A stretch of 40,793 bases of DNA from a virus (taxonomy: Duplodnaviria; Caudoviricetes): positions 1 to 40,793 of IMG/VR virus record IMGVR_UViG_3300036987_000548, one strand, 5' to 3'. Positions 12,595 to 31,150 of this stretch are shown one piece after another (position 1 is the first letter of the stretch; each line of letters begins with the position of its first letter). Below the pieces are notes generated by a model. That model had not been told where the DNA came from. It saw only the letters and a program-made list of their open reading frames with translations, and did no database searches. The position numbers and the translations under genes were made by a program.

Positions 12595-15500
12595 TTACTG
12601 TGTTAATATCAATTTTATTGTTTCAAATTCAGGCTCAACCGAACAAGGCGCGTTTATCGCGCTGGTCGTAAATGTATAAATCGGGCGGCCATTGACTATT
12701 TGAGTGTCAGTTATTGATCCGCCGCAAGTACCCGCTTCCGTCTTGTATTTCCAGCCATCGTTTGGCGCGATAAGGAAAGTGGTCGGTGATCCGAAAGTAG
12801 CAAGCTGTGCCGGGCTTATCGTTCCGCCTAGTCCGCCGACAACGGAAGGGGTGACGAGGAGAGGATCGCAGGCTACAGATACCTCTTTATCTGCTGACAT
12901 ATCCAGAGGGCCGCAAGATGCACCGGAGCAATCTCCTGAATAAGTGGCGTTGTAATACCCTGCCGCGCAGAGCGTGGAAAGCGTGGGCGTTTCAGTGGAG
13001 TAATAGTCATATTCACAGTCAAACTCGTCCCCGCCGCACCTGATTCCTTGTATATCTGACGCAACAACCGAACCATCTGTAGGATAAGTCACGGTAAGTT
13101 TATATTTTGTATTCTCTGTCCACGTTGCCGTGACGGTTTCGGAACTTGCCGCTTTATTAAACGAGCAAGCACCTGTTCCAGAGCAAACCCCTCCTGACCA
13201 TCCGGCAAAGGTATGGTTATCGCCCGGTGTTTGTGTAACCGTGACCGCCGTGCCTGATGTGCGACCATAAGTACCGGCAACAGGGTCAGTCACACCTAAG
13301 CCAACATTAGTAATGATTAGCGGGTATTCCGTAGGAGTAACAATAAATTCTTTATCTACCGTTCTTGCCTCAGACATTGATACCGTGCAAGGGTCAGCGT
13401 CTGCCGTACCAGCGCAAGCCCCTGTCCATGCGCCATGACTGTTTCCGCTTGCAGGAGTAGCGGTTAGAGTGGTTGATGCACCAGACAGAAAGTTAAATCC
13501 ACAAGTGGCCCCGCAGTTAATCTCTGACAACGTACTCGTGACCGTTCCTGTTCCTGTCCCTGATTTGGTGACTTGTAGTAAATAATAAACTGGCGGGTCT
13601 GAGCCACCAGTAATATATCCCGTAACGCCTTCCTGCCCTGCCGTGTAAACACAACCGGCGGAATATCCAGTTAAGGGATGAGGACATGCTTCCGGTTCAT
13701 AGTATTCTGTCCATTTATCCGAAACACAGCGGTAAAGTTTATTTGAAGTCGTACTCCACCAAGCGGTGTTGGCAGTAGTACAGGCCGTCACTCCGCTGGT
13801 GGGGGTTGCTGTGCCATAACCAACGCCAGAAGTGCAGGTATCCAACGCTGTGCAGCTTGCTCCCTCCTGCGTGTAATAATCACGGTTTGGCAGAATAGTC
13901 CTTATGCCCGCATCCCCGAATATCTTAATTCTGTTGCCGCTTGCTCCCCCTAACGTATTCCCCCACATATACATAGGCACGCGAGTTTGTGCAGCGTTAG
14001 GAGTAAGGACATGTGCAACACTAACAGGGCCTAAAATACAAGCAACATTTTCTGCATCTGAACCAGTCGGAGTAAAGACCAATCCTGCTGTGCTTACTGC
14101 TTTAAACTCACAATGAATTAAAGAATGAGTTAAAGAGTTATCGTCAGTAGCTATGCACCAAGAAGGAGCTGTTGCGCCACCAAGACTAGGAGTTAAAGAC
14201 CTATTGGCTCCTGCCGACCACGAGGATACTTTATATCTTACTGCATAAGTTTTACCCACTTCGGGAGCAAGTAGGTCGTATGATACCGTCCCCGTTGCAC
14301 CGGCACTTTTGACGAGAGTGAAATCTGTTTTAGCCCAACCAACTCCCAGAGTCCAATTTGCCACCTTTTGGTAAAAACCCCCCTCGCCTCCAAGAAGATC
14401 AAAATTAACCGAAAATAAATCAGTGTCATACCCTCTGCCAATCTGGTCTCGGCAAGGATAACCATCTGAAATTCTATATTCATCTCCGGTGTCCCAATCG
14501 TTCTCTGTACCACCAAAAAGAGTGCAGGTAATTGTATTTGCGGTATTGGAAGCAATCAAGCACATACTCCCGTCAGTGATATTATAAACAGTAGTGCCGG
14601 GGCTTGTATCTGCCAATGAGTAGGCAAGTTTATTTGTGTTCCATGCCTTATTATCCCTTACACCAACTTCTCCTTCATCGGTAAGGACAGAGGCGTTATT
14701 GGCCCCAGTGTGTTTTCCGGTGAAGGTCGTGTTGCCGAAAAAACTTGTTATTTCTGGTCTGGTATGGTCAATGGTTTCGTTACCGTCATAGTCGGAACTG
14801 CCGTCACAAGGCCCAAATAAATGATCTGTTGTTGCTTCGGTTTTTGCCGCACTACCTCGTTCACTATCGACAGACATAATATATGACGTATAGGTAGACC
14901 CCAAACTATTATGATGAATGACCCCCGTTCCTGCTCTTGCCCGCAACATGAAACTTGCTGCGCTCGTAGTGGTAGCATTAGTCATTTTATTGTTATAGAA
15001 CTCAGACATTTGTGCGCCACGATGGAATACTGGAGTGTTCTGAGTGGCGTGAGTCGCAAAATATTTTAGATTGCTACTGCCAGTAGTATCTAGTGTAACA
15101 TCATTAAACCTGACGACAGTCCTTGCACCCTGCCCCCCGTCTGTAATGTAGGCATATACTGTTTCTGTAAAAGTACATCCCTCGATATAGACAACATTTT
15201 CATTAGCTGTTTTTCCAAGGGGTGGTAGTTGGGAAAATAGAGCATTAACATTGGTTGCTGATCCAGAAGTATAACCAGTATTGTTTATGCCTGATTGCAA
15301 GTTGCTTTTAGAAATAACCCCGTAAGCAGAAGTTAATCCCTCGGTTGCTACTGTAGGCTTGAAATAAATTTTCTTCACATGATCAGTGTCATGGATATAA
15401 AAGCGGAAAGGTGCGCCCCAAAAGCTAAGATCGCCATTAAATTTAATACCATATATTTCAAAAGGGATGCTCTTTTTTGCTGTGATTATAGGTGCCGTGC

Positions 15501-15756
15501 TGGTGCAGGTTGTATAGCTTCTGCTTACCCCTTTAATAATAAGTTCGGTTGGGGCAGTCCAAGTAACCATGCTGAAATTAGTAATAGCAAAAGTAGCAGT
15601 GGTTATATCTATCATAACCTCGCCTGCTTGTGTGGCCACCTCCGCCCGGCAAGTGTCAAAGGACTTCTCTGCCGTTACGGTGCAGGTATAGTCGGGGGCC
15701 GCCCACGCAAAACTCGTAAAGCAAAGCAGAAATATAATCGAAAGTAGTTTTTTCAT
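12595..15756 (-). CDS. Large exported Thr/Gly/Cys-rich multidomain protein (beta-helix-like N-terminal part, C-terminal InlB B-repeat-like units)
   Basis: Signal peptide MKKLLSIIFLLCFTSFAWA; repeated LxVTKSGTGTGTVTS...INCG..C...TLTATP.SG....WTGAC units; start at 15756 (ATGA overlap). Confidence 0.75.
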   Translation of the reverse strand: MKKLLSIIFLLCFTSFAWAAPDYTCTVTAEKSFDTCRAEVATQAGEVMIDITTATFAITNFSMVTWTAPTELIIKGVSRSYTTCTSTAPIITAKKSIPFEIYGIKFNGDLSFWGAPFRFYIHDTDHVKKIYFKPTVATEGLTSAYGVISKSNLQSGINNTGYTSGSATNVNALFSQLPPLGKTANENVVYIEGCTFTETVYAYITDGGQGARTVVRFNDVTLDTTGSSNLKYFATHATQNTPVFHRGAQMSEFYNNKMTNATTTSAASFMLRARAGTGVIHHNSLGSTYTSYIMSVDSERGSAAKTEATTDHLFGPCDGSSDYDGNETIDHTRPEITSFFGNTTFTGKHTGANNASVLTDEGEVGVRDNKAWNTNKLAYSLADTSPGTTVYNITDGSMCLIASNTANTITCTLFGGTENDWDTGDEYRISDGYPCRDQIGRGYDTDLFSVNFDLLGGEGGFYQKVANWTLGVGWAKTDFTLVKSAGATGTVSYDLLAPEVGKTYAVRYKVSSWSAGANRSLTPSLGGATAPSWCIATDDNSLTHSLIHCEFKAVSTAGLVFTPTGSDAENVACILGPVSVAHVLTPNAAQTRVPMYMWGNTLGGASGNRIKIFGDAGIRTILPNRDYYTQEGASCTALDTCTSGVGYGTATPTSGVTACTTANTAWWSTTSNKLYRCVSDKWTEYYEPEACPHPLTGYSAGCVYTAGQEGVTGYITGGSDPPVYYLLQVTKSGTGTGTVTSTLSEINCGATCGFNFLSGASTTLTATPASGNSHGAWTGACAGTADADPCTVSMSEARTVDKEFIVTPTEYPLIITNVGLGVTDPVAGTYGRTSGTAVTVTQTPGDNHTFAGWSGGVCSGTGACSFNKAASSETVTATWTENTKYKLTVTYPTDGSVVASDIQGIRCGGDEFDCEYDYYSTETPTLSTLCAAGYYNATYSGDCSGASCGPLDMSADKEVSVACDPLLVTPSVVGGLGGTISPAQLATFGSPTTFLIAPNDGWKYKTEAGTCGGSITDTQIVNGRPIYTFTTSAINAPCSVEPEFETIKLILTQ

Positions 15757-16562
15757 TGGGTACACCCTGTGGTGATTTCCGTATCATCATCAATCTTAAT
15801 GTTATCAAACTGGACAACGTAGTCGGCGACCGATGCCGTTCCCTGAGTGCCTCCGATTGTAACGTATCGGCCAACAACAGAACCAGACACAGTTGAAGTA
15901 TTATCGACGACTGTTTCCGAACTAGACCCATCGGACAAAGCTAAAGATATTCGGAATGTAGATTCATCAATGAAGTAAAACCTCACCCGATACCAAGTAT
16001 CAAGAGAAATTGTGGTTGTACTGTTCCCAACCAAGTCACTCGTTTGATTCAAAGCGTAGCTAAGTTTTAATGCTGTTCCGCTTACGTTTTGAACACTTAT
16101 TATTATGCTAGTTACGCTACCATCCAGCGTTGACCTAAACAGTCGTACAGATTCGTTATTGCCAAGACTATGCGAATGTAACAGAAAATAGAATTGTCCG
16201 GATAGGGTCGCCCTAGTGCCTCCCAAATCCTTATACAAATGAGTAGTTTCCGTGTCTTTGTTATCAATTACAATAGAGTAACTTCCCTTGTCGGCGCAAC
16301 TTAATGTGCCATAGGTGTTGGGAGCGACGTTATAAGCGATAGTGCTGTTCTCGCCCTTTACGGCATCGCCTAGACACGATGAGGCTGTCCCTTCTTCCGA
16401 ATCAACGCAAAATTGATCAGCGTCATCGGTAGTGCAACTACCAGCACAATGAACGGCAACCGCAGCACTTCCCCCCGGACACGGCCTCCCACTAACCACC
16501 GAGGCGGCATGAACCTGTACCGCAAAAATCAGTATTAAAAATAAACTAAGGTATTTTCTCAT
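15753..16562 (-). CDS. Exported protein with a LamG/ConA-like beta-sandwich
   Basis: Signal peptide MRKYLSLFLILIFAVQVHA; ISLDTWYRV...VQFDNIKI pattern; Cys-rich N-terminal linker. Confidence 0.7.
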   Translation of the reverse strand: MRKYLSLFLILIFAVQVHAASVVSGRPCPGGSAAVAVHCAGSCTTDDADQFCVDSEEGTASSCLGDAVKGENSTIAYNVAPNTYGTLSCADKGSYSIVIDNKDTETTHLYKDLGGTRATLSGQFYFLLHSHSLGNNESVRLFRSTLDGSVTSIIISVQNVSGTALKLSYALNQTSDLVGNSTTTISLDTWYRVRFYFIDESTFRISLALSDGSSSETVVDNTSTVSGSVVGRYVTIGGTQGTASVADYVVQFDNIKIDDDTEITTGCTQ

Positions 16563-16569
16563 AAATCAC

Positions 16570-17406
16570 CTATTGAGTAATCTTGTATTTAATGACCAGT
16601 GGGCCGGAATAGCTGGCCACTGTGGAGGCGTCATCTGTTTCATCATCGCCATCACGTGTAATTCTAATCACAAATAGTTGCCCTGCGGTCATAGCAGAAC
16701 GCCATCCTGTCAGCGTTGTCGGCCCCGCAGTTTCAACATCATCCTTAGCCCCGCTCCCGTCTGCCGTGTAAGCTAGATTAATTGGGTCGCCTAACGAGCC
16801 TGCATAAGCCGCGCTATCAGCGACAGAATCGAAACTAATTACATAATCATGGTCAGCAGTATCAGTATTATCCAACTTGATTTTAAACGTAGCAACGAGG
16901 TCAACAGAAGTATCTATGTCAGACGGGACAACAAGATAATACTCCGCAAAATTATTGTCTTCTACAGTACCGGAAAACTTACACTGCCCAAAGGTATTCG
17001 TTGTTGAAGTGGTCTGCATAGGCGCAGCAGAGCCACACACATGAGGATGGGTAAGGATAAGATAGCCCCAGCTCTTCAGTACGTTTCCTGTCCCGTCAAC
17101 ATCAAGGGTTTTGTTGGTTAGCGTTTCAGAAGTTGCCGGACCGGAAAAGTCTGAATTACAATCAACAACCGGCCCGGTGGAATTATAGGTGCAAGCTTTT
17201 CCATTGGTTAAAGTTCCGGCGGGTAAAGGCGTTCCTGCGGCCTTTAACTTTTTGCCGGTTGGGCCGTCATAAACAGCGGATTGACCGTCTGTGGCTGAAG
17301 CCGGGCCGGTAACATCGCCGCCGCCGAGAGTGGAACCGCTGGGCCCGCCGAATGCGGACGATACCAGGCAGAGTAATATAATTAGAATCAAATATATTTT
17401 TTTCAT
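16570..17406 (-). CDS. Exported phage-fibre-like protein
   Basis: Signal peptide MKKIYLILIILLCLVSSAFG; fibre-shaft-like motifs GDVTGPASATDGQSAVYDGPTGKKLK and SETLTNKTLD; C-terminal beta-rich domain. Confidence 0.65.
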   Translation of the reverse strand: MKKIYLILIILLCLVSSAFGGPSGSTLGGGDVTGPASATDGQSAVYDGPTGKKLKAAGTPLPAGTLTNGKACTYNSTGPVVDCNSDFSGPATSETLTNKTLDVDGTGNVLKSWGYLILTHPHVCGSAAPMQTTSTTNTFGQCKFSGTVEDNNFAEYYLVVPSDIDTSVDLVATFKIKLDNTDTADHDYVISFDSVADSAAYAGSLGDPINLAYTADGSGAKDDVETAGPTTLTGWRSAMTAGQLFVIRITRDGDDETDDASTVASYSGPLVIKYKITQ

Positions 17407-17415
17407 AATGATCTC

Positions 17416-17832
17416 CTATTGGTCGTATTGTACCTGCCAGGCATAAGATCCGCCGCCGGCAACGCTGCTCGAGACATAGACGCCGGTAATCGCCGTACCC
17501 GCGACATTATTCACCGCCGGAGAATAGCCATAAGTAAAGACGCGCTGACTGCCTGCAATGACCAGCGTCTCCACAAGCACCGGACCGGAAGCTGCCGTAT
17601 TGCCGTAGATCTTTATAGTCACGGCATTTGTGCCGTCGGTAAGCACCGTTACTCCATAATAGGCACAGGCACCCGTCACGGCCACACCGCTGGCTGTGCC
17701 CCAGGCGCTTGTCTTTGCTACCTGCACCTGCCCCACGCCGGATGTCAGGGACATCCAGTCCGCCCTGGCAGGAAATACCAGGGCAAATACCATCAGTAGC
17801 CCGCAGATGATTTTCAGAAAATGATTTTTCAT
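17416..17832 (-). CDS. Exported small beta-rich (jelly-roll-like) protein
   Basis: Signal peptide ending VFPARA; all-beta mature part; GGAGG RBS. Confidence 0.7.
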   Translation of the reverse strand: MKNHFLKIICGLLMVFALVFPARADWMSLTSGVGQVQVAKTSAWGTASGVAVTGACAYYGVTVLTDGTNAVTIKIYGNTAASGPVLVETLVIAGSQRVFTYGYSPAVNNVAGTAITGVYVSSSVAGGGSYAWQVQYDQ

Positions 17833-17876
17833 TTTAAACCTCCATTTTTCCCGGATCCGGATTCCGGATCCTAATT

Positions 17877-17937
17877 CTGGATCCCGATTTTCATCGGGAT
17901 GACGACTTTCATCCTTGAACCTTTGTCCTTGAGCCTT
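17877..17937. repeat. REP-like palindrome plus heptamer array copy 2
   Basis: CTGGATCCCGATTTTCATCGGGATGAC (17877-17903); CCTT x4 at 7-bp period (17913-17937). Confidence 0.8.
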
Positions 17938-18433
17938 AATTCTTAAATACTCCCGCTATGCTGAACGTGAAACTCGTCCCGCCAACGGTGTAATAAATCC
18001 GCAGATAATTGCCGAAGTTGGTGATCGCCTGCCGGTATTGTCCCGTTGCCGTGATCTGGCTTATGGTCGTGTGCGTGTACCAGGTCACATTATCCGGGGA
18101 AGTCTGGATGATAATATCCAGCGTTGATGTTGCTGCCTCGGCGGTCACATCGACGAAGATCTGCCCTTCGGTATAGGCAGAGACATCAAAGCCGGTTGAT
18201 TGCGCCGTCGCGGCAGTTTTTACTCCCGAGGAGAGGTAAGTTATTACCCTGGTTTTCCGATCTTCGGCCTGGGCGGAGGTGATAAATGCCAAAATCAGGG
18301 TCACAGCCAGGGCAAAAACCAATCCAGAAATTAAAATTTGCCGCCCAGGAGCGTTTTTTACCCCTCCGGACGCCTCAACATAGCCATTTTTTCTTTTTAG
18401 GGCCTTAAAAACGATTTTAACGCGATCCATCAT
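17936..18433 (-). CDS. Exported small jelly-roll protein resembling capsid cement proteins
   Basis: Hydrophobic segment ending ITSAQA; mature LDIIIQTSPDNVTW...NYLRIYYTVGG recalls Bbp16-type cement proteins; start moved to 18433 (GGAGG at 18441-18445). Confidence 0.62.
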   Translation of the reverse strand: MMDRVKIVFKALKRKNGYVEASGGVKNAPGRQILISGLVFALAVTLILAFITSAQAEDRKTRVITYLSSGVKTAATAQSTGFDVSAYTEGQIFVDVTAEAATSTLDIIIQTSPDNVTWYTHTTISQITATGQYRQAITNFGNYLRIYYTVGGTSFTFSIAGVFKN

Positions 18434-18478: not shown

Positions 18479-19627
18479 CTAAATAAGGGGTTTAGGCCTT
18501 AACCTTGCTCCTTCAACCTTGGTCCTTGATCCTTCTTTTTCCCAAATCCCCAGCCAGACAACTCCCAGCAGCGCCGTCGGCGCAATGTGAAAAAGATGCC
18601 AGCCGAAACAGGCCACGGCCACCGCCGTTATTCCAGCCGCCGCCTGCGGTGAAACCGGTTTGCTTAAAATCGTCCACCCGATAACGAGCAGAAAACCGGC
18701 AATCAGCAATAATGTCTGCACGCCCAGCTCAAAAGCAGCCTGCACGTATTCGTTGTGGGCCTGCGCGAAAACATTGCTCATTACCAGTTTATTTCCTTCG
18801 TTCGCCACTTCGCCGATCCGTTTATCTCCGGACGCCAAAAGCGGGAAAACCATCTCCCAGCTGCCGAGGCCTCGCCCCAGATATTCCGCCTGCATGGACA
18901 TTGCCGCATGTTTCCAGGCGATCCAGCGCGGGCATTGGACAATGCTGTCGATGGAGTCCACTTTCCAAAACCAGACGGACATACCCAGGCAAAGCAAGAC
19001 AGAGGCAAAGACGACCGCTTTTTTGCCCCAGTCCTGGCGAATGATAAAAATAATCCCGGCACCGGCGGCGGCAATCATTGCGGTGCTGGCTTGGGCTACG
19101 ACGATCCCGGCAAGAACAAAGGGGATAAACAGCCACCAGCCCCGGCGCAGAAATGCCGGCAGGCATAGGGCTAAAAAGACGCCTGCGGAGTCAGGATTAA
19201 ACGGGCCGGAGTATTGCGTGCCGAACCAGACGCGCAGCCAGCCGAAATACTGTGCCAGCATCCACAGAAGAAGCAGGCTGGCAGCGAGACACAGCGCATC
19301 CATCGCTCTGTCTTTGTCGATCCGGCTGATCCCTTCTGCCGCCGCGAGAAATATGGCGATCATCAGGAGTCCGATGTAGGCGTCATAGGATGGCGGCATA
19401 ATTGTTGCCGTCCTGCCCATCGCCAGCAAAAAGAAGCCGCGCCACCACCAGCTGGAGAGAAGGGCGGCAAAGGCCACCCCTCCCAGCCAGATAGATGCCA
19501 ACTGCCAGGACAATCGAAGCTCCATGCCCATTATCGGGATGATGCAAAACATCAGTCCCGGTATTGCCGCCAGCAATGTTATTTGAACAAGGGGTTGCAA
19601 CCCCTTGTTCTCTCGCCTCTCGTTCAT
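18479..19627 (-). CDS. O-antigen ligase / O-oligosaccharyltransferase family polytopic membrane protein (Wzy_C)
   Basis: About 10-12 hydrophobic segments; GPFNPD, RWIAWK, LGRGLGSW and AHNEYVQAAFELG match the WaaL/PglL periplasmic-loop signature. Confidence 0.85.
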   Translation of the reverse strand: MNERRENKGLQPLVQITLLAAIPGLMFCIIPIMGMELRLSWQLASIWLGGVAFAALLSSWWWRGFFLLAMGRTATIMPPSYDAYIGLLMIAIFLAAAEGISRIDKDRAMDALCLAASLLLLWMLAQYFGWLRVWFGTQYSGPFNPDSAGVFLALCLPAFLRRGWWLFIPFVLAGIVVAQASTAMIAAAGAGIIFIIRQDWGKKAVVFASVLLCLGMSVWFWKVDSIDSIVQCPRWIAWKHAAMSMQAEYLGRGLGSWEMVFPLLASGDKRIGEVANEGNKLVMSNVFAQAHNEYVQAAFELGVQTLLLIAGFLLVIGWTILSKPVSPQAAAGITAVAVACFGWHLFHIAPTALLGVVWLGIWEKEGSRTKVEGARLRPKPLI

Positions 19628-20107
19628 TTAGTAGGCAGCCCCCGCAGAATTCGGTATTGTCAGGTGAATATAATATTTGGTCGACGTCGCGGCGGCGGCA
19701 GATCCCGGCAATACCCACCCCAATGCCTGGGCGTTGGTCGGTGCCGTAGTTGTGATGGCTCCGGCAGTTGCCGCATCAAGGAAAAGTCTTGCGCCCGGAC
19801 TGGCTGCCGTCATGCCGGTAATAACTCCGGAAACGACAACTTCTACATAGGCGCCTGCTGCTCCTCCCTTGCCAATGACTCCTACTGCCGGTCGTAAAGT
19901 CGAAACGTCGGCGTCGGCTTTCCAGATTGCGCCGGTACTGGGTAAAATCGCGACAACATCGCCGGCGACTAAAGTTTCACCGGCCAGCCCGGTGAACCGG
20001 CTGTTTTTTTGCTGCCAGCTTATCGCCGCCCATGACGGCACGGTAAATGCCAGCAGCATTACAAACATCAGGACAAGCCCGATTATTTTGGTGTGAATTC
20101 TGTTCAT
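19628..20107 (-). CDS. Capsid decoration-like protein (DUF2190 / beta-tulip type) with an N-terminal signal peptide
   Basis: Directly after the capsid gene; AGETLVAGDVV...KADA...AVGV...VEVVVSGVI...GARLFL...GAITTTAP pattern; leader MNRIHTKIIGLVLMFVMLLAFTVPSWA. Confidence 0.72.
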   Translation of the reverse strand: MNRIHTKIIGLVLMFVMLLAFTVPSWAAISWQQKNSRFTGLAGETLVAGDVVAILPSTGAIWKADADVSTLRPAVGVIGKGGAAGAYVEVVVSGVITGMTAASPGARLFLDAATAGAITTTAPTNAQALGWVLPGSAAAATSTKYYIHLTIPNSAGAAY

Positions 20108-20133
20108 TTTGTACCTCCCTCTTTTTTTGGTTG

Positions 20134-20172
20134 AGGCGGAGAGCCGGGGTTTTTACACCAACTCTCCAGCCT
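20134..20172 (-). other. Stem-loop downstream of the capsid gene (mRNA stabiliser or partial terminator)
   Basis: AGGCTGGAGAGTTGG...CCGGCTCTCCGCCT with G-U pairs on the - strand; no U-tract in that direction. Confidence 0.5.
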
Positions 20173-20217
20173 GTAGTTTTTCCTTGAACCTTGCGCCTCG
20201 AACCTCGAACCTATTTC

Positions 20218-22653
20218 CTAAGCCACAACCGCTTTATAACCGCTGCGGAAGTCGATGACCGCGCCCGCATATTCGTGGCGGATCTTGTGGCGGATCTTGT
20301 CGGCCACGAAGACCTGCTCGGATTGCGGCATGTCGGCGACAAACAGCTCCGGTTCCTCGCGCCCGTTGAGATACCCCATTTCCACCATGTCGATCAGCTG
20401 CGGCGGCAGCAGGAGACCCCAGTCATTGGCGTCCGTAAAGAGAGGTACGACGACCGGGTTGACCTTGCCTTTGAGCGAATTAGGAACTTTGGTGGTCAGA
20501 TCGTTGGCGGTATAATAGAAATCTTCCGACGCGATTTTCTCAATCGTTTCCATGATATCTATCGGGCCAACCAGGTTGGGCTTCACGCTGGGATCCGAGA
20601 GGAGGCCGATCCTTTCGCCGGAATCCTTTTCCGTCATTGAGCCGAGCGCTTTATAGGCGATCAGCGCGGTGGCATGAGTCAGCGCCGCCGCTCCCAGGTT
20701 GACGTGCAAACCAGCCCCGGTGAACCAGGCGGTTCCGTCGGAGCAGTTCGCGTTGTTGATAAAGAAATTCCAGACGTACTTCGCATGCGTGCGCCTTGCC
20801 GCCCGGCTCAGACCGTCAATCAGGCGCTGAATGATGCTGATATCGTCGTTGATGATGGTCTTGCGGGTGATGGTCAGGAGGTTGCCCTTCTGCCCGATCT
20901 GGTAAGTGGACTCTTCATCCGTCACGCCGGCGATCTCCACATAATCAGCCGCTTCCGGATCAACGGTGGCAAGATCAGGGAATCCGCCGACCAGGACTGC
21001 TTCCTGAGTGCGAAAATCCTTGACCGGCTTTTTCACGCTGATCAGCAGCTCTTCCAGATAAGAAAGCGCCTTATAAATCCCGACCAGCCTGCGGCCCAGG
21101 GTATTGCCCAGGACAAAGGTGAACGTCGCGCTGTTGATGTCCATGCTGCTGCGCAATTCCGCTGGCAGAGCTTTGCGATTGAAGCGTCCGTTTACTTCCG
21201 GATCCCCGGTGAAGTAAGCGTACATTTCCCGGAGGCCGGAAAAAGCGGGGACGCTGTCGAAATCGTTATAATCCTGGACATTGCGGACGTCGGAGAAAAA
21301 CGGCTTGTTGTCCAGCCGGGTCAATTTGGCCAGGTTGACCATGTCGTCTTTCTTGAGCCCGAACATTCGATCCGCCGCCATGCAGGCGCGCTCAAATGAG
21401 CCTAATCCGCCGGTGATGGTGCCGCTAGGAATACCGTCATTGCCGGGTGCGGCGGTGCTAATTTTGGCCAGATAGTCCTTTTCGTCGGCGATGGTCTTAT
21501 CGAGATCCGCCGCTGCAAAAGCCCGGCCCTCAAACGTCTTTTTGATTCGGTCGATGGCCACCTGCGGCAGCCCCAGCGTGGTATCGGCCAGTTTTGCTGT
21601 GAGCGCCATCCCGCAGCGGAAAATTTCCAGGTCGCCTTTTGTTGCGACATTGGAAAGGTCTATTTTATCTTTTTCCTGCGGCTCCATCGCCATGCGGGCC
21701 AGCCCTTCGATTTCCTGATCGGAAATGGTCGTGACGTCTTTCCCTTTCAGGAGGTCCGGCCTTTTCTCGCCAATCAACTTCAATAAAGCTTCTCTCATTT
21801 TATCCTCCTTGTTATGGGCCGGCACGCTGGCCACTGCCCGGTTAAATTTCCCGCCTGCGGCGGGCCTTGTGACGATATCCACCGAATCGGCGGATAAAAA
21901 TTTATTAATTTTGAATACTTCTTTGCCGTCCACCACGGCCTTCGCCGCCCGCACCGGGCAATCATAGGAAAGCCCGTAAATTGCCGCGCCTTTTTCTTTT
22001 GCCGTCAGGATATTTTTCCCCAGCCATTTAGCGGAATCCAGAAAATGTAAAACGCCTTGCAAACCGACACCGGCAGCATGTTTCACGCCATCGATCCAGC
22101 CTACTTTGTTTTTCACGAGCAGGGATTTCAGATCAAATAACGGATCGGGCAGGTGAGTCGCCCCCTGGGGAAGCTCAAAAAGATTGACATCGACATTTTC
22201 AAAAAGACCGGCGGCAACGCGGATAGCCTCATCCGGAATATACCAGCCGTTTTTTGTGAAGCCAGGCTCGCAGATGGTGACGTCCCAGGCAGTGCCCTCG
22301 GTATTTTTCGCCGCATCCAGGCGCATGAGCATTTCCATGCCTTCATCGGATTCCGCCTGCGCGGATCGCGCTTCCACCCAGGTCTGCTCGACTTCCGTCG
22401 GCGTTTCGCCCAAAGTGACTTTTCCGTCCAGAATCGACCAGGCAATTTTGAAGCAGTGCTCTTCCTGCTCATAGATGAGATATGACGGATAAACCTCGCG
22501 CAGCCAGGTGTCGATTTCCACCGGGGCATTATCCGATCCGGTACGGGTTAGTTTAAAACGATCCCGAATCGCCTGGCGCAGCAAATCGCGGATATCGTCC
22601 AGGCTGAGCTCCGCCCCTTTCGCCCGCTGATTTTGTTTGTCTTTTTTGTTCAT
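20218..22653 (-). CDS. Prohead protease - scaffold - major capsid protein fusion
   Basis: N-terminal TKNGWY...GLSYD...SVDIVTRPAAGG protease motifs; C-terminal VKDFR...TITRKTIINDD HK97-fold capsid pattern; internal RBS and ATG at 21798. Confidence 0.85.
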   Translation of the reverse strand: MNKKDKQNQRAKGAELSLDDIRDLLRQAIRDRFKLTRTGSDNAPVEIDTWLREVYPSYLIYEQEEHCFKIAWSILDGKVTLGETPTEVEQTWVEARSAQAESDEGMEMLMRLDAAKNTEGTAWDVTICEPGFTKNGWYIPDEAIRVAAGLFENVDVNLFELPQGATHLPDPLFDLKSLLVKNKVGWIDGVKHAAGVGLQGVLHFLDSAKWLGKNILTAKEKGAAIYGLSYDCPVRAAKAVVDGKEVFKINKFLSADSVDIVTRPAAGGKFNRAVASVPAHNKEDKMREALLKLIGEKRPDLLKGKDVTTISDQEIEGLARMAMEPQEKDKIDLSNVATKGDLEIFRCGMALTAKLADTTLGLPQVAIDRIKKTFEGRAFAAADLDKTIADEKDYLAKISTAAPGNDGIPSGTITGGLGSFERACMAADRMFGLKKDDMVNLAKLTRLDNKPFFSDVRNVQDYNDFDSVPAFSGLREMYAYFTGDPEVNGRFNRKALPAELRSSMDINSATFTFVLGNTLGRRLVGIYKALSYLEELLISVKKPVKDFRTQEAVLVGGFPDLATVDPEAADYVEIAGVTDEESTYQIGQKGNLLTITRKTIINDDISIIQRLIDGLSRAARRTHAKYVWNFFINNANCSDGTAWFTGAGLHVNLGAAALTHATALIAYKALGSMTEKDSGERIGLLSDPSVKPNLVGPIDIMETIEKIASEDFYYTANDLTTKVPNSLKGKVNPVVVPLFTDANDWGLLLPPQLIDMVEMGYLNGREEPELFVADMPQSEQVFVADKIRHKIRHEYAGAVIDFRSGYKAVVA

Positions 22654-29530: not shown

Positions 29531-30427
29531 CTATTCCAGTGTCAACTTGAGTTGCCGTGCGGCGCTTTTGTGATCTAACACCTTTAACGCTTCATATTCC
29601 GTTTTGATTCCGTCTTTTGTTTCCCATGTTATAATTTTAAGGGCCAATTCCAAAATATCTCCTTTAGAAAAGGCTATCAGATTATCATTTACCTTGCGTA
29701 AAAATTCTTCATCTTTGATCGTAACAAAAAAGGTATTTGATCCATCAGACAAACGCCACTTATTGTCTTCCTTGAAACTCAATGAATGTATGGAATACAA
29801 TGCCGTGGTATCCTTTTCCTGGATAATCTCTTCGGCGATATCGGGTGTGCGAAAATATTTATATTCACTTTTTTCGATCACTTCTATGACTTGCTGGTTA
29901 TCCTTGACGATAAACTTATCAATGCCTTCAACAGATAAAGGTTTAACAACGTTTTCCGCCTGCTGCCTGACCTTCAGGTCGCGGTAAAGGTCAAATACTT
30001 CCTTCGTGACAATTTCAATTTCATCTGTAAAATCTATTTCGATGTTACCATCTTGTAAGATTTTCGCCTTCCTGGGTTGTCGTCCTTTTGCCTTTTTAAT
30101 TAGATAAAACAATCCCTTAAAACCTAATACGGAAAAGCCTAAGAATTGAACAAGATTAGCAGCGGCAGTAGCTTGCTTGCCGGAAAGCATCTCAATTAAC
30201 TGTGTAGCGAAGCCCTGGATAACTTCAAAGGAAATACCGAAAGAGCCATCTTCGAATTTCTTTACTTTAACGGACACTTCGGTCTTGCCATCGTTTAGTA
30301 CGCGATTGCTTTCTTCCAGAAGAGATCCCATCGCTAAAAGAGCTGGGGCAAGCTCCCTGACATCCATCTGTCCGCTTTCAAGGATATCACCGCTGTAAAA
30401 TACTTTAAATGAAGTCTTACTATTCAT
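29531..30427 (-). CDS. Uncharacterised AT-rich moron protein (possible C-terminal OB-like domain)
   Basis: 298 aa; MDVRELAPALLA...GSFGI and FKEDNKWRLSDG...FSKGDIL; no Shine-Dalgarno sequence, possible leaderless promoter. Confidence 0.75.
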   Translation of the reverse strand: MNSKTSFKVFYSGDILESGQMDVRELAPALLAMGSLLEESNRVLNDGKTEVSVKVKKFEDGSFGISFEVIQGFATQLIEMLSGKQATAAANLVQFLGFSVLGFKGLFYLIKKAKGRQPRKAKILQDGNIEIDFTDEIEIVTKEVFDLYRDLKVRQQAENVVKPLSVEGIDKFIVKDNQQVIEVIEKSEYKYFRTPDIAEEIIQEKDTTALYSIHSLSFKEDNKWRLSDGSNTFFVTIKDEEFLRKVNDNLIAFSKGDILELALKIITWETKDGIKTEYEALKVLDHKSAARQLKLTLE

Positions 30428-30478
30428 GGCATGAAAGATAACATATTTAGAATTTGCTGCATATAAAAAAGAGTATAA

Positions 30479-31150
30479 TTATTTTATGGCGATAAGAGCT
30501 GCGAGGATAGCCAAGCCAATGGTCAATACAATTGGCACCACCCATTTCATATTTTTAACTTCTTGGGATAGCTGCCCCACGTTGGAACTAAGAGATCGCA
30601 ATGTCGTTATCACTTCTGACAAGGCCATTCCTTCGGTTTCTGTAATAGCCTCGATCTCTTCAGGCCCTAGTTCCATCTTGCCCTGATAAGCTCCGTCATA
30701 AGGCTTTGTGGACGGCTCTTCGAGTCGATGAAACTCCACCGAAACAAGATCATCTTTGTATGGTACAGAAATAGGCCGCGGGGTTAGATTGGTAATACCA
30801 AGGATTAATTTCCCATGATACCCTGGATCTATTTGCGGCCCTGTTGTGGCGATAAGACCCTTACGAGCATATTTGGAGCGTAAGCCAAAGCGACCAGCGT
30901 ACTGAGGCCCCAGCCTTAATTCTTCCAGAACGGTAACCACTGCAAAATCTCCCGGTTGCAGGAGTATAAATCCGTTGCTTTTGATATCCACGAGTTTTTT
31001 TGAGCTTGTTGTTGCTCCTTGAGCTCCAACTCGAAAATCATACGTTGCGGCTTGCACTTGGCCCGGCTCAAAAGGGTTAATCAAAATATCCCCTTTGCGA
31101 TATGCCTCTTCAATCTGCCTGTTTGTGAGTATCATGATAGAATCCTCCAT
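30479..31150 (-). CDS. dCTP deaminase / dUTPase-fold protein with a C-terminal coiled coil and TM helix
   Basis: ATYDFRVG, RSKYARKGL, IDPGYHG, PYDGAYQG; ends WVVPIVLTIGLAILAALIAIK; true start may be the MILTN ATG behind GGAGG. Confidence 0.85.
   Translation of the reverse strand: MEDSIMILTNRQIEEAYRKGDILINPFEPGQVQAATYDFRVGAQGATTSSKKLVDIKSNGFILLQPGDFAVVTVLEELRLGPQYAGRFGLRSKYARKGLIATTGPQIDPGYHGKLILGITNLTPRPISVPYKDDLVSVEFHRLEEPSTKPYDGAYQGKMELGPEEIEAITETEGMALSEVITTLRSLSSNVGQLSQEVKNMKWVVPIVLTIGLAILAALIAIK

Follow-up and report, generated by a model that had tools for sequence, protein, structure and literature searches.

A predicted exported capsid cement encoded next to a candidate oligosaccharyltransferase in a Mu-like prophage

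We propose, with moderate confidence in the reading as a whole, that the predicted capsid cement of a Mu-like prophage is exported, may be modified with a host glycan by the enzyme encoded directly behind it, and would join the phage heads at lysis. To our knowledge, tailed-phage particles are assembled wholly in the cytoplasm, and a conserved export signal on a capsid cement would break this rule whether or not the protein is glycosylated. With the ligase, virions could become glycosylated in a second way, by en bloc transfer from the lipid carriers of the host. The parts are known, and their combination lies outside any described system that we found in the literature; in openly available papers, supplements aside, we found no report of exported capsid decorations or of a ligase in a head operon.

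Cement gene and predicted fold

The window (the whole stretch of DNA analysed here, 40,793 nucleotides) is a provirus record of 40.8 kb with matches to Mu transposase, an AAA transposition protein, Gam, GemA and Mu gp27, and also to terminase, Mu F and a protease-capsid fusion, and from this gene content we regard it as a Mu-like transposable prophage. Genomes with related loci belong to Syntrophobacterales, Smithellaceae, Syntrophorhabdaceae, Desulfobacterales and other groups, which points to a two-membrane anaerobe as the likely host. Table 1 lists the features discussed.

Table 1. Features of the head-gene region of the window
Feature	Position	Strand	Basis
Prohead protease-major capsid protein fusion, 811 aa, without leader	20218..22653	-	Phage_capsid_4 E 1e-30; phrog_4523
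Spacer between capsid and cement genes, with modest hairpin and ribosome-binding site	20108..20217	-	z -2.05
Beta-tulip capsid cement/decoration protein, short form, 159 aa	19628..20107	-	predicted fold; PF09956 weak
Predicted Sec/signal-peptidase-I leader of the cement, residues 1-27, cut after A27	20027..20107	-	leader rule, AxA-like site
C-terminal tail of the cement, residues 152-159, candidate acceptor Ser154	19631..19654	-	tail pattern; acceptor role inferred
Wzy_C / WaaL-fold membrane enzyme, 382 aa, candidate oligosaccharyltransferase	18479..19627	-	Wzy_C family and predicted fold
DUF6385-like protein, leader with long n-region	17936..18433	-	PF19912 weak
Four more leader-bearing genes (138, 278, 269 and 1054 aa) in the cassette's variable accessory portion	12595..17832	-	all pass the leader rule

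The gene order given by an earlier sequence-only reading is correct: the cement gene is the first gene after the protease-capsid fusion (its presumed binding partner), and its TAA is directly followed by the ATG of the ligase gene, with 0 bases between. In the spacer upstream of the cement gene, 7 of 200 shuffles fold as well as the hairpin, which perhaps tunes expression or message stability, and no promoter-like site was found on the minus strand of this spacer. Promoter and terminator scans stayed at chance level (13 promoter-like sites vs 11.8).

The AlphaFold2 model of the cement (pLDDT 93) finds its best matches, by Foldseek and VIA-align, in the phage capsid chains 8saj_3 (Z 12.7, rmsd 3.3, 116 aligned), 8qsy_JI and 8giu_1 (both Z 12.6). 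Going partly by entry titles, we take 8saj to be a chain of Adjutor, 8giu of Patience and 8qsy of HFTV1. Twelve chains reach a Z of at least 8, all those listed being phage capsid entries, and the next-ranked matches are to Pam3, XM1, E217, Sf11, TW1, phi29 gp8.5 and lambda. Thus, of the DUF2190/beta-tulip pattern noted earlier, the beta-tulip fold is matched by the model, but the score for PF09956 (DUF2190, Phage_cement_2) is 17.5 bits against a cut-off of 24; a precomputed match to this family exists in 10 of 100 cement homologues. We class the cement as DUF2190-like, its Pfam score being below the cut-off. Neither cement nor ligase had a match in NCBIfam, or by tblastn against 50,697 phage records.

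The known beta-tulip cements (lambda gpD, TW1 and the base of phi29 gp8.5) share the predicted fold, the mature size and the slot after the capsid gene; the window cement differs from them in its Sec-type leader, the adjacent Wzy_C gene and the sub-cut-off Pfam score. Residues 35-150 of the cement model align to residues 2-115 of gp8.5, which continues as a fibre after residue 116 (available text of PMC6542822), like the long relatives of the cement described below. In the accessible part of the review PMC7602432, the terms 'signal' and 'glycosyl' do not occur.

Predicted export leader of the cement

The basic n-region, hydrophobic core and S-W-A site seen in the earlier reading are all present, as basic residues 3 and 7, a core at about 8-23 (about 16 residues, best hydrophobic 12-mer mean 3.2) and S25-W26-A27. 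All 100 proteins of the homologue search, the window's included, have a hydrophobic N-terminal core, and across these 100 homologues the mature part is conserved but the letters of the leader change freely. At the DNA level, 178 cement ORFs came from three collection scans (two of the scans being the best 80 of 133 and the best 80 of 106 matches), with the seven distant genome matches L097-L103 left out; 30 of the 178 are truncated or have too little downstream DNA and were unscored for the ligase. At 90% identity, 100 representatives have enough downstream DNA, and 97 of these have a complete start. According to a simple home-made rule, 96 of these 97 relatives carry a leader, 88 have an AxA-like site, and none has a lipobox or a twin-arginine motif, in keeping with the pattern of a Sec/signal peptidase I substrate (a basic n-region, a hydrophobic core, and small residues at -3 and -1). 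In the window, 6 of 30 genes pass the same rule, all of them between the capsid gene and the head-tail connector gene (one is the ligase, which passes through its first helix), and 0 of 23 genes outside this interval do; the protease-capsid fusion has no leader by this rule.

In 54 of the 97 relatives, a start codon in frame with the cement is present close to the cut, and from it an ordinary cytoplasmic cement could be made with the leader unused. This we consider highly improbable, since a ribosome-binding motif of at least 4 bases accompanies none of these downstream starts (0/97), the upstream ATG of the window's ORF (20107-19628, minus strand) is preceded by a strong GGAGG, and the three-part make-up of the leader is retained in all relatives except one. 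We note that starts were chosen partly by their ribosome-binding motif, so how often the chosen starts have one is not independent evidence.

Leaderless relatives also exist, and 24 of the best 150 distant cement representatives have a short N-terminus. In two loci with checked DNA (L229 and L231), the same protease-capsid fusion is followed by a cement that corresponds to the window's from the predicted cut on, with a strong ribosome-binding site 23 and 43 bases past the capsid stop, and then by a connector-like gene, with no ligase. Residue 1 of the solved chain 8saj_3 aligns to residue 29 of the cement model. Since these proteins begin at the cut, the leader is an add-on to an ordinary cement. 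The same starting points, together with the frequency of the AxA-like site, speak against an uncleaved leader that would hold the cement at the inner membrane and, through it, tether capsids or membrane fragments there. Such an anchor is very unlikely in our view, although the core is long, the model has a helix at 2-20 and cleavage is judged from a pattern; even with an uncleaved leader, the basic n-region would place the domain in the periplasm. On its sequence, the cement is very probably exported via Sec and clipped after residue 27.

The adjacent Wzy_C enzyme

The class proposed earlier for the ligase, that of PglL, does not hold: each of the 26 members scanned matches Wzy_C (E at most 0.01, with 7.5e-16 the best) and no other domain, PglL_A and Wzy_C_2 included, and the window enzyme's own Wzy_C score is below the cut-off (25.4 vs 31.7). 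Its model (pLDDT 93) has WaaL 7tpj as best fold (Z 20.1, rmsd 3.8, 288 aligned), also matches WaaL 7tpg (E 1e-4), and matches FtsW/RodA at lower scores (Z 12-14); no solved relatives were found by sequence. Because Wzy_C is common to WaaL, Wzy polymerases and transferases, the fold cannot separate ligase, polymerase and transferase. N144, R234, H291 and H347 are at least 90% conserved in 81 sequences; R234 and H291 correspond to the conserved periplasmic Arg and His expected of Wzy_C / WaaL-fold enzymes, and H291 may be the counterpart of the conserved His needed in TfpM (available text of PMC9829042 and PMC12645811). Among 37 window proteins scanned against Pfam, none matched a glycosyltransferase or flippase, so any glycan donor would be the host's.

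An acceptor gene directly before its transferase gene is the layout of TfpO, TfpM and PglS (available text of PMC12645811 and PMC9829042). As far as these sources go, the window pair resembles TfpO-PilA, TfpM-pilin and PglS-ComP in having a Wzy_C enzyme directly behind an exported protein and a conserved His in the Wzy_C region, and its enzyme shares with TfpO and TfpM the lack of PglL_A and Wzy_C_2 domains. Unlike in these pairs, a phage cement takes the place of the pilin as candidate acceptor, and the candidate site is internal; window-type enzymes are also shorter (about 350-420 aa vs 420-470). The earlier comparison with the pilin-TfpO pair fails at the last residue, which is Tyr in 40 of 47 ligase-linked short forms and not the Ser/Thr used by TfpO/TfpM. 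PglL and PglS have PglL_A and Wzy_C_2 domains and exceed 500 aa (same sources, available text), in contrast to the 382 aa of the window enzyme. The O-antigen ligase WaaL (7TPG/7TPJ), the best structural match, is of similar size; the window enzyme is only 14-15% identical to it and is encoded by a phage late-operon gene outside any LPS cluster.

We also considered a serotype-conversion moron, i.e. a unit of its own that lies opposite to or apart from the late genes, and rejected it, as the ligase gene is on the cement's strand, abuts the cement gene, has no promoter-like site in front and has a GC content like that of the capsid gene. D3 Wzy-beta and VarioGold VG_p25 are likewise phage-borne Wzy_C proteins, and the VG_p25 gene also lies behind a signal-peptide gene; unlike the window ligase, both are morons opposite to the late genes (available text of PMC9658991).

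Short and long cements and their pairing with the ligase

The 100 representatives comprise 47 short forms with an adjacent ligase, 4 short forms without, 49 long forms without and 0 long forms with one. The same three classes are seen at other identity levels (48/4/50 at 95%, 42/4/41 at 80% and 35/4/22 at 70%). Long forms have about 270-600 aa, and their extensions are fibre-like (phrog_38058) in 5 of 12 scanned. The dedicated acceptor-plus-transferase layout suggested earlier is borne out in that 47 of the 51 non-redundant short cements are encoded directly in front of a ligase, with -26 to 105 bases from cement stop to ligase start (47 loci), and the pair is kept although the ligases diverge to about 30% identity. 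The idea that the leader is tied to the ligase is not, since the leader is present without a ligase in all 48 long forms scored for it and in all 4 ligase-free short forms; being independent of the ligase, export alone does not imply glycosylation. Within one phage group, the same slot can thus hold a leaderless cement without ligase (L229, L231), a leadered long form without ligase, or a leadered short form, mostly with ligase.

On a quick capsid tree (in which row L027 is a frameshifted capsid), long modules and short-plus-ligase modules alternate, with 19 changes of which at least 6 are forced. On the cement tree, the long forms make one clade (99) with the short forms on the other side, and ligase-free short forms arose twice. 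As the long forms are one clade, we assign the short-plus-ligase arrangement one origin, and the six independent pairs on the capsid tree are not counted as separate origins because the block moves whole; linkage alone explains both the block transfer of the pair and the absence of a long-plus-ligase form. The tie of the short form and its tail to the ligase, read from one origin and two losses in these sequences, is thus weak. Searches of the whole ligase-free records (16 with long forms, 2 leaderless and 5 with short forms) found no ligase elsewhere in any of them, while the two positive controls were recovered; all 23 records are incomplete, the virus records being 21-84% complete.

Some loci depart from these classes. 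L034:8914-10477 and L086 have a long and a short cement in tandem and no ligase, and the short one has no Pro-x-Ser tail pattern. At L073:3908-4986, the C-terminus of the cement is aberrant and the ligase shortened, likely a decaying or frameshifted pair.

Distant phage ligases

Scanning viral contigs with the ligase motif alone gave 53 loci, of which 27 are distant, or 19 after near-duplicate removal (2 of the 19 lack a Wzy_C match and are perhaps not ligases). In 15 of the 19 loci, the gene immediately upstream of the ligase bears a leader, compared with 4 of 88 genes further upstream; at a 16th locus the upstream gene is cut by the contig end. Among the 17 loci tested for a capsid gene, 14 have a confirmed major capsid protein one to four genes upstream (five families), two have portal or adaptor genes and one has nothing. 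Eight of the 19 have upstream proteins of a single family and are therefore not independent; the Atlas model of this family is similar to a cement-domain cluster (TM 0.66). Profile comparison of three other upstream proteins with the cement gave weak or no alignment (E 0.04, 0.7 and 0.079). Because the layout recurs with different capsids and different exported partners, it is the best evidence we have from sequences, and it suggests a functional tie between the exported protein and the ligase.

This recurrence behind five capsid families also bears on whether the enzyme has another substrate, such as lipid A-core, O-antigen in polymerisation, or another exported phage protein, and only travels in the same block as the exported cement, which would still decorate capsids at lysis. 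We consider this unlikely, though among solved folds the closest belongs to a true O-antigen ligase, short form and ligase were paired in one origin, and long forms are exported without any ligase. Phage Wzy_C genes do act in serotype conversion in D3, but conversion genes run opposite to the late genes (available text of PMC9658991), whereas this ligase abuts the cement stop without a promoter-like site. Moreover, a change of LPS late in lysis would be of little use, and the ligase is retained in cassettes that hold the cement alone.

We note that at L131:4631-7277 a 459-aa membrane protein is encoded directly after the capsid gene, with no leader gene between and no Wzy_C match.

Candidate acceptor site

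The three motifs of the Ala/Ser/Pro-rich tail described earlier do exist (at 118, 134 and 152), but the one at 118 is structural, not low-complexity. As sites of modification they also fare differently: a Pro-x-Ser near the C-terminus tracks the ligase, while 118-124 and 134-141 do not. The 118-124 motif was rejected as a ligase-specific site because long forms also have Ser/Thr at the Thr119 column (98% of them) and at the Thr121 column (92%). The 134-141 loop was set aside because it is confined to short forms, whether or not they have a ligase, and is missing in the ligase-bearing L010.

A Pro followed by Ser/Thr within the last 11 residues is found in 45 of 47 ligase-linked short forms vs 0 of 4 ligase-free ones, a post hoc contrast whose ligase-free side is 4 sequences from 2 losses. 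In the ligase-linked forms, Pro is at -8 in 34 of 47 and Ser at -6 in 39 of 47. Both independent losses of the ligase coincide with loss of the Pro-x-Ser; still, 1 of the 4 ligase-free forms keeps a Thr at the Ser154 position, and 3 of 4 have some Ser/Thr in the last 9 residues. The Ser154 column in 100 homologues is Ser in 87, Thr in 9 and Asn in 4. From this pattern, Ser154, six residues from the end, is the best candidate acceptor.

The tail is the lowest-confidence part of the cement model, and it begins where phi29 gp8.5 (as far as the available text describes it) and the long relatives turn from base to fibre. By analogy with gp8.5, the tail would point away from the capsid, and at this position a sugar chain would replace a protein fibre. 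The last codon (19631-19633) encodes an aromatic residue in 100 of 100 homologues (Tyr 89, Phe 7, Trp 4); being aromatic with or without a ligase, this residue is more likely a docking residue than an acceptor.

Proposed assembly route

In the route we propose, cement and ligase would be co-transcribed late with the capsid gene. The cement would pass through Sec, be cleaved after Ala27 and fold in the periplasm, where the WaaL-fold enzyme would move a host undecaprenyl-pyrophosphate-linked glycan onto the tail, with Ser154 as the best candidate; we hold this transfer to be probable. When the inner membrane fails at lysis, the mature cement would meet DNA-filled heads, and binding of its trimers at the three-fold positions of the finished heads at that stage is highly likely in our judgement. 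Decoration proteins can bind mature heads after assembly, e.g. Dec of phage L, and some beta-tulip cements, lambda gpD among them, are required to act while the DNA is being packaged (available text of PMC7602432). An exported protein cannot act during packaging, so a role like that of lambda gpD counts against the proposed route.

Sugar on capsid proteins is described as a shield in mycobacteriophages (Che8 and kin; available text of PMC11256854 and PMC12691614). There, as far as these texts go, phage glycosyltransferases modify the major capsid protein, unlike in the window, with its lipid-carrier-type enzyme, an exported accessory protein as target and no glycosyltransferase found. If the proposed route is true, the virion surface would depend on the previous host, each virion wearing the sugar of its last host, and a compact transferase family with a short C-terminal tag could be of use in glycoengineering. 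Tentatively, and with somewhat less confidence than we place in the route itself, we suggest that many unrelated tailed phages build virions in two compartments, in which cytoplasmic heads and periplasmic glycan-bearing coat or fibre proteins would meet at lysis, the glycan being host O-antigen or another lipid-linked glycan added by a phage transferase; in the group studied here, sugar chain and protein fibre would be interchangeable on the cement base.

Head-gene cassette and accessory genes

Position and strand of the cement within the head operon are fixed in all loci mapped. Thirty ligase loci have the connector in view: 6 hold cement and ligase only (one of them looks frameshifted), 14 also hold a DUF6385-like gene, and 10 hold more genes. 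In the window (12595-18433, minus strand), five further leader-bearing genes lie downstream of the ligase. The first encodes a DUF6385-like protein, likely a second exported capsid decoration, of the jelly-roll type; its structural neighbours include DUF6385 clusters and one cluster with 27% Bbp16, those of 108-114 aa look leaderless, and a hydrophobic leader is visible in its relatives. A leader-bearing DUF6385-like gene accompanies both short and long cements, including 18 of 42 long loci. The products of the other four genes have 21-26% Ser/Thr, and the three largest of these genes were not seen in the other loci shown. The largest product contains 30 Cys, as might be expected if head fibres fold in the periplasm with disulfide bonds; this 1054-aa protein also has InlB-B-like repeats (Flg_new_2). 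GC drops to 43-45% at 14-17 kb of the window, and that of the cement-ligase pair matches the capsid gene.

The variable, lower-GC accessory genes would also suit proteins that act in the envelope of the lysogen or infected cell as a cloak, a decoy or a superinfection block, glycosylated or not, with no binding to the capsid, and export does remove the cement from the cytoplasm, where heads form; the hairpin before the cement gene points the same way. We regard an envelope role as quite unlikely, because the place of the cement in the head operon is fixed, leadered cements replace leaderless ones one for one (L229, L231), long forms have the fibre-like extensions mentioned above, and promoter-like sites are at chance.

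Long runs of leader-bearing genes lie downstream of the ligase in other phages (L040:11600-18808, L125, L142 and L146), with small predicted lipoproteins among the leader-bearing genes in L142 and L143. In the window itself, a LAPAL-family gene (NF053583) and a dCTP-deaminase gene (TIGR02274) lie between early and lysis genes (29531-31150, minus strand), and a Dam-family methylase gene lies at 1-765. Inside the head cassette at L087:14559-16231, two genes appear to encode the reverse transcriptase of a diversity-generating retroelement and its accessory protein.
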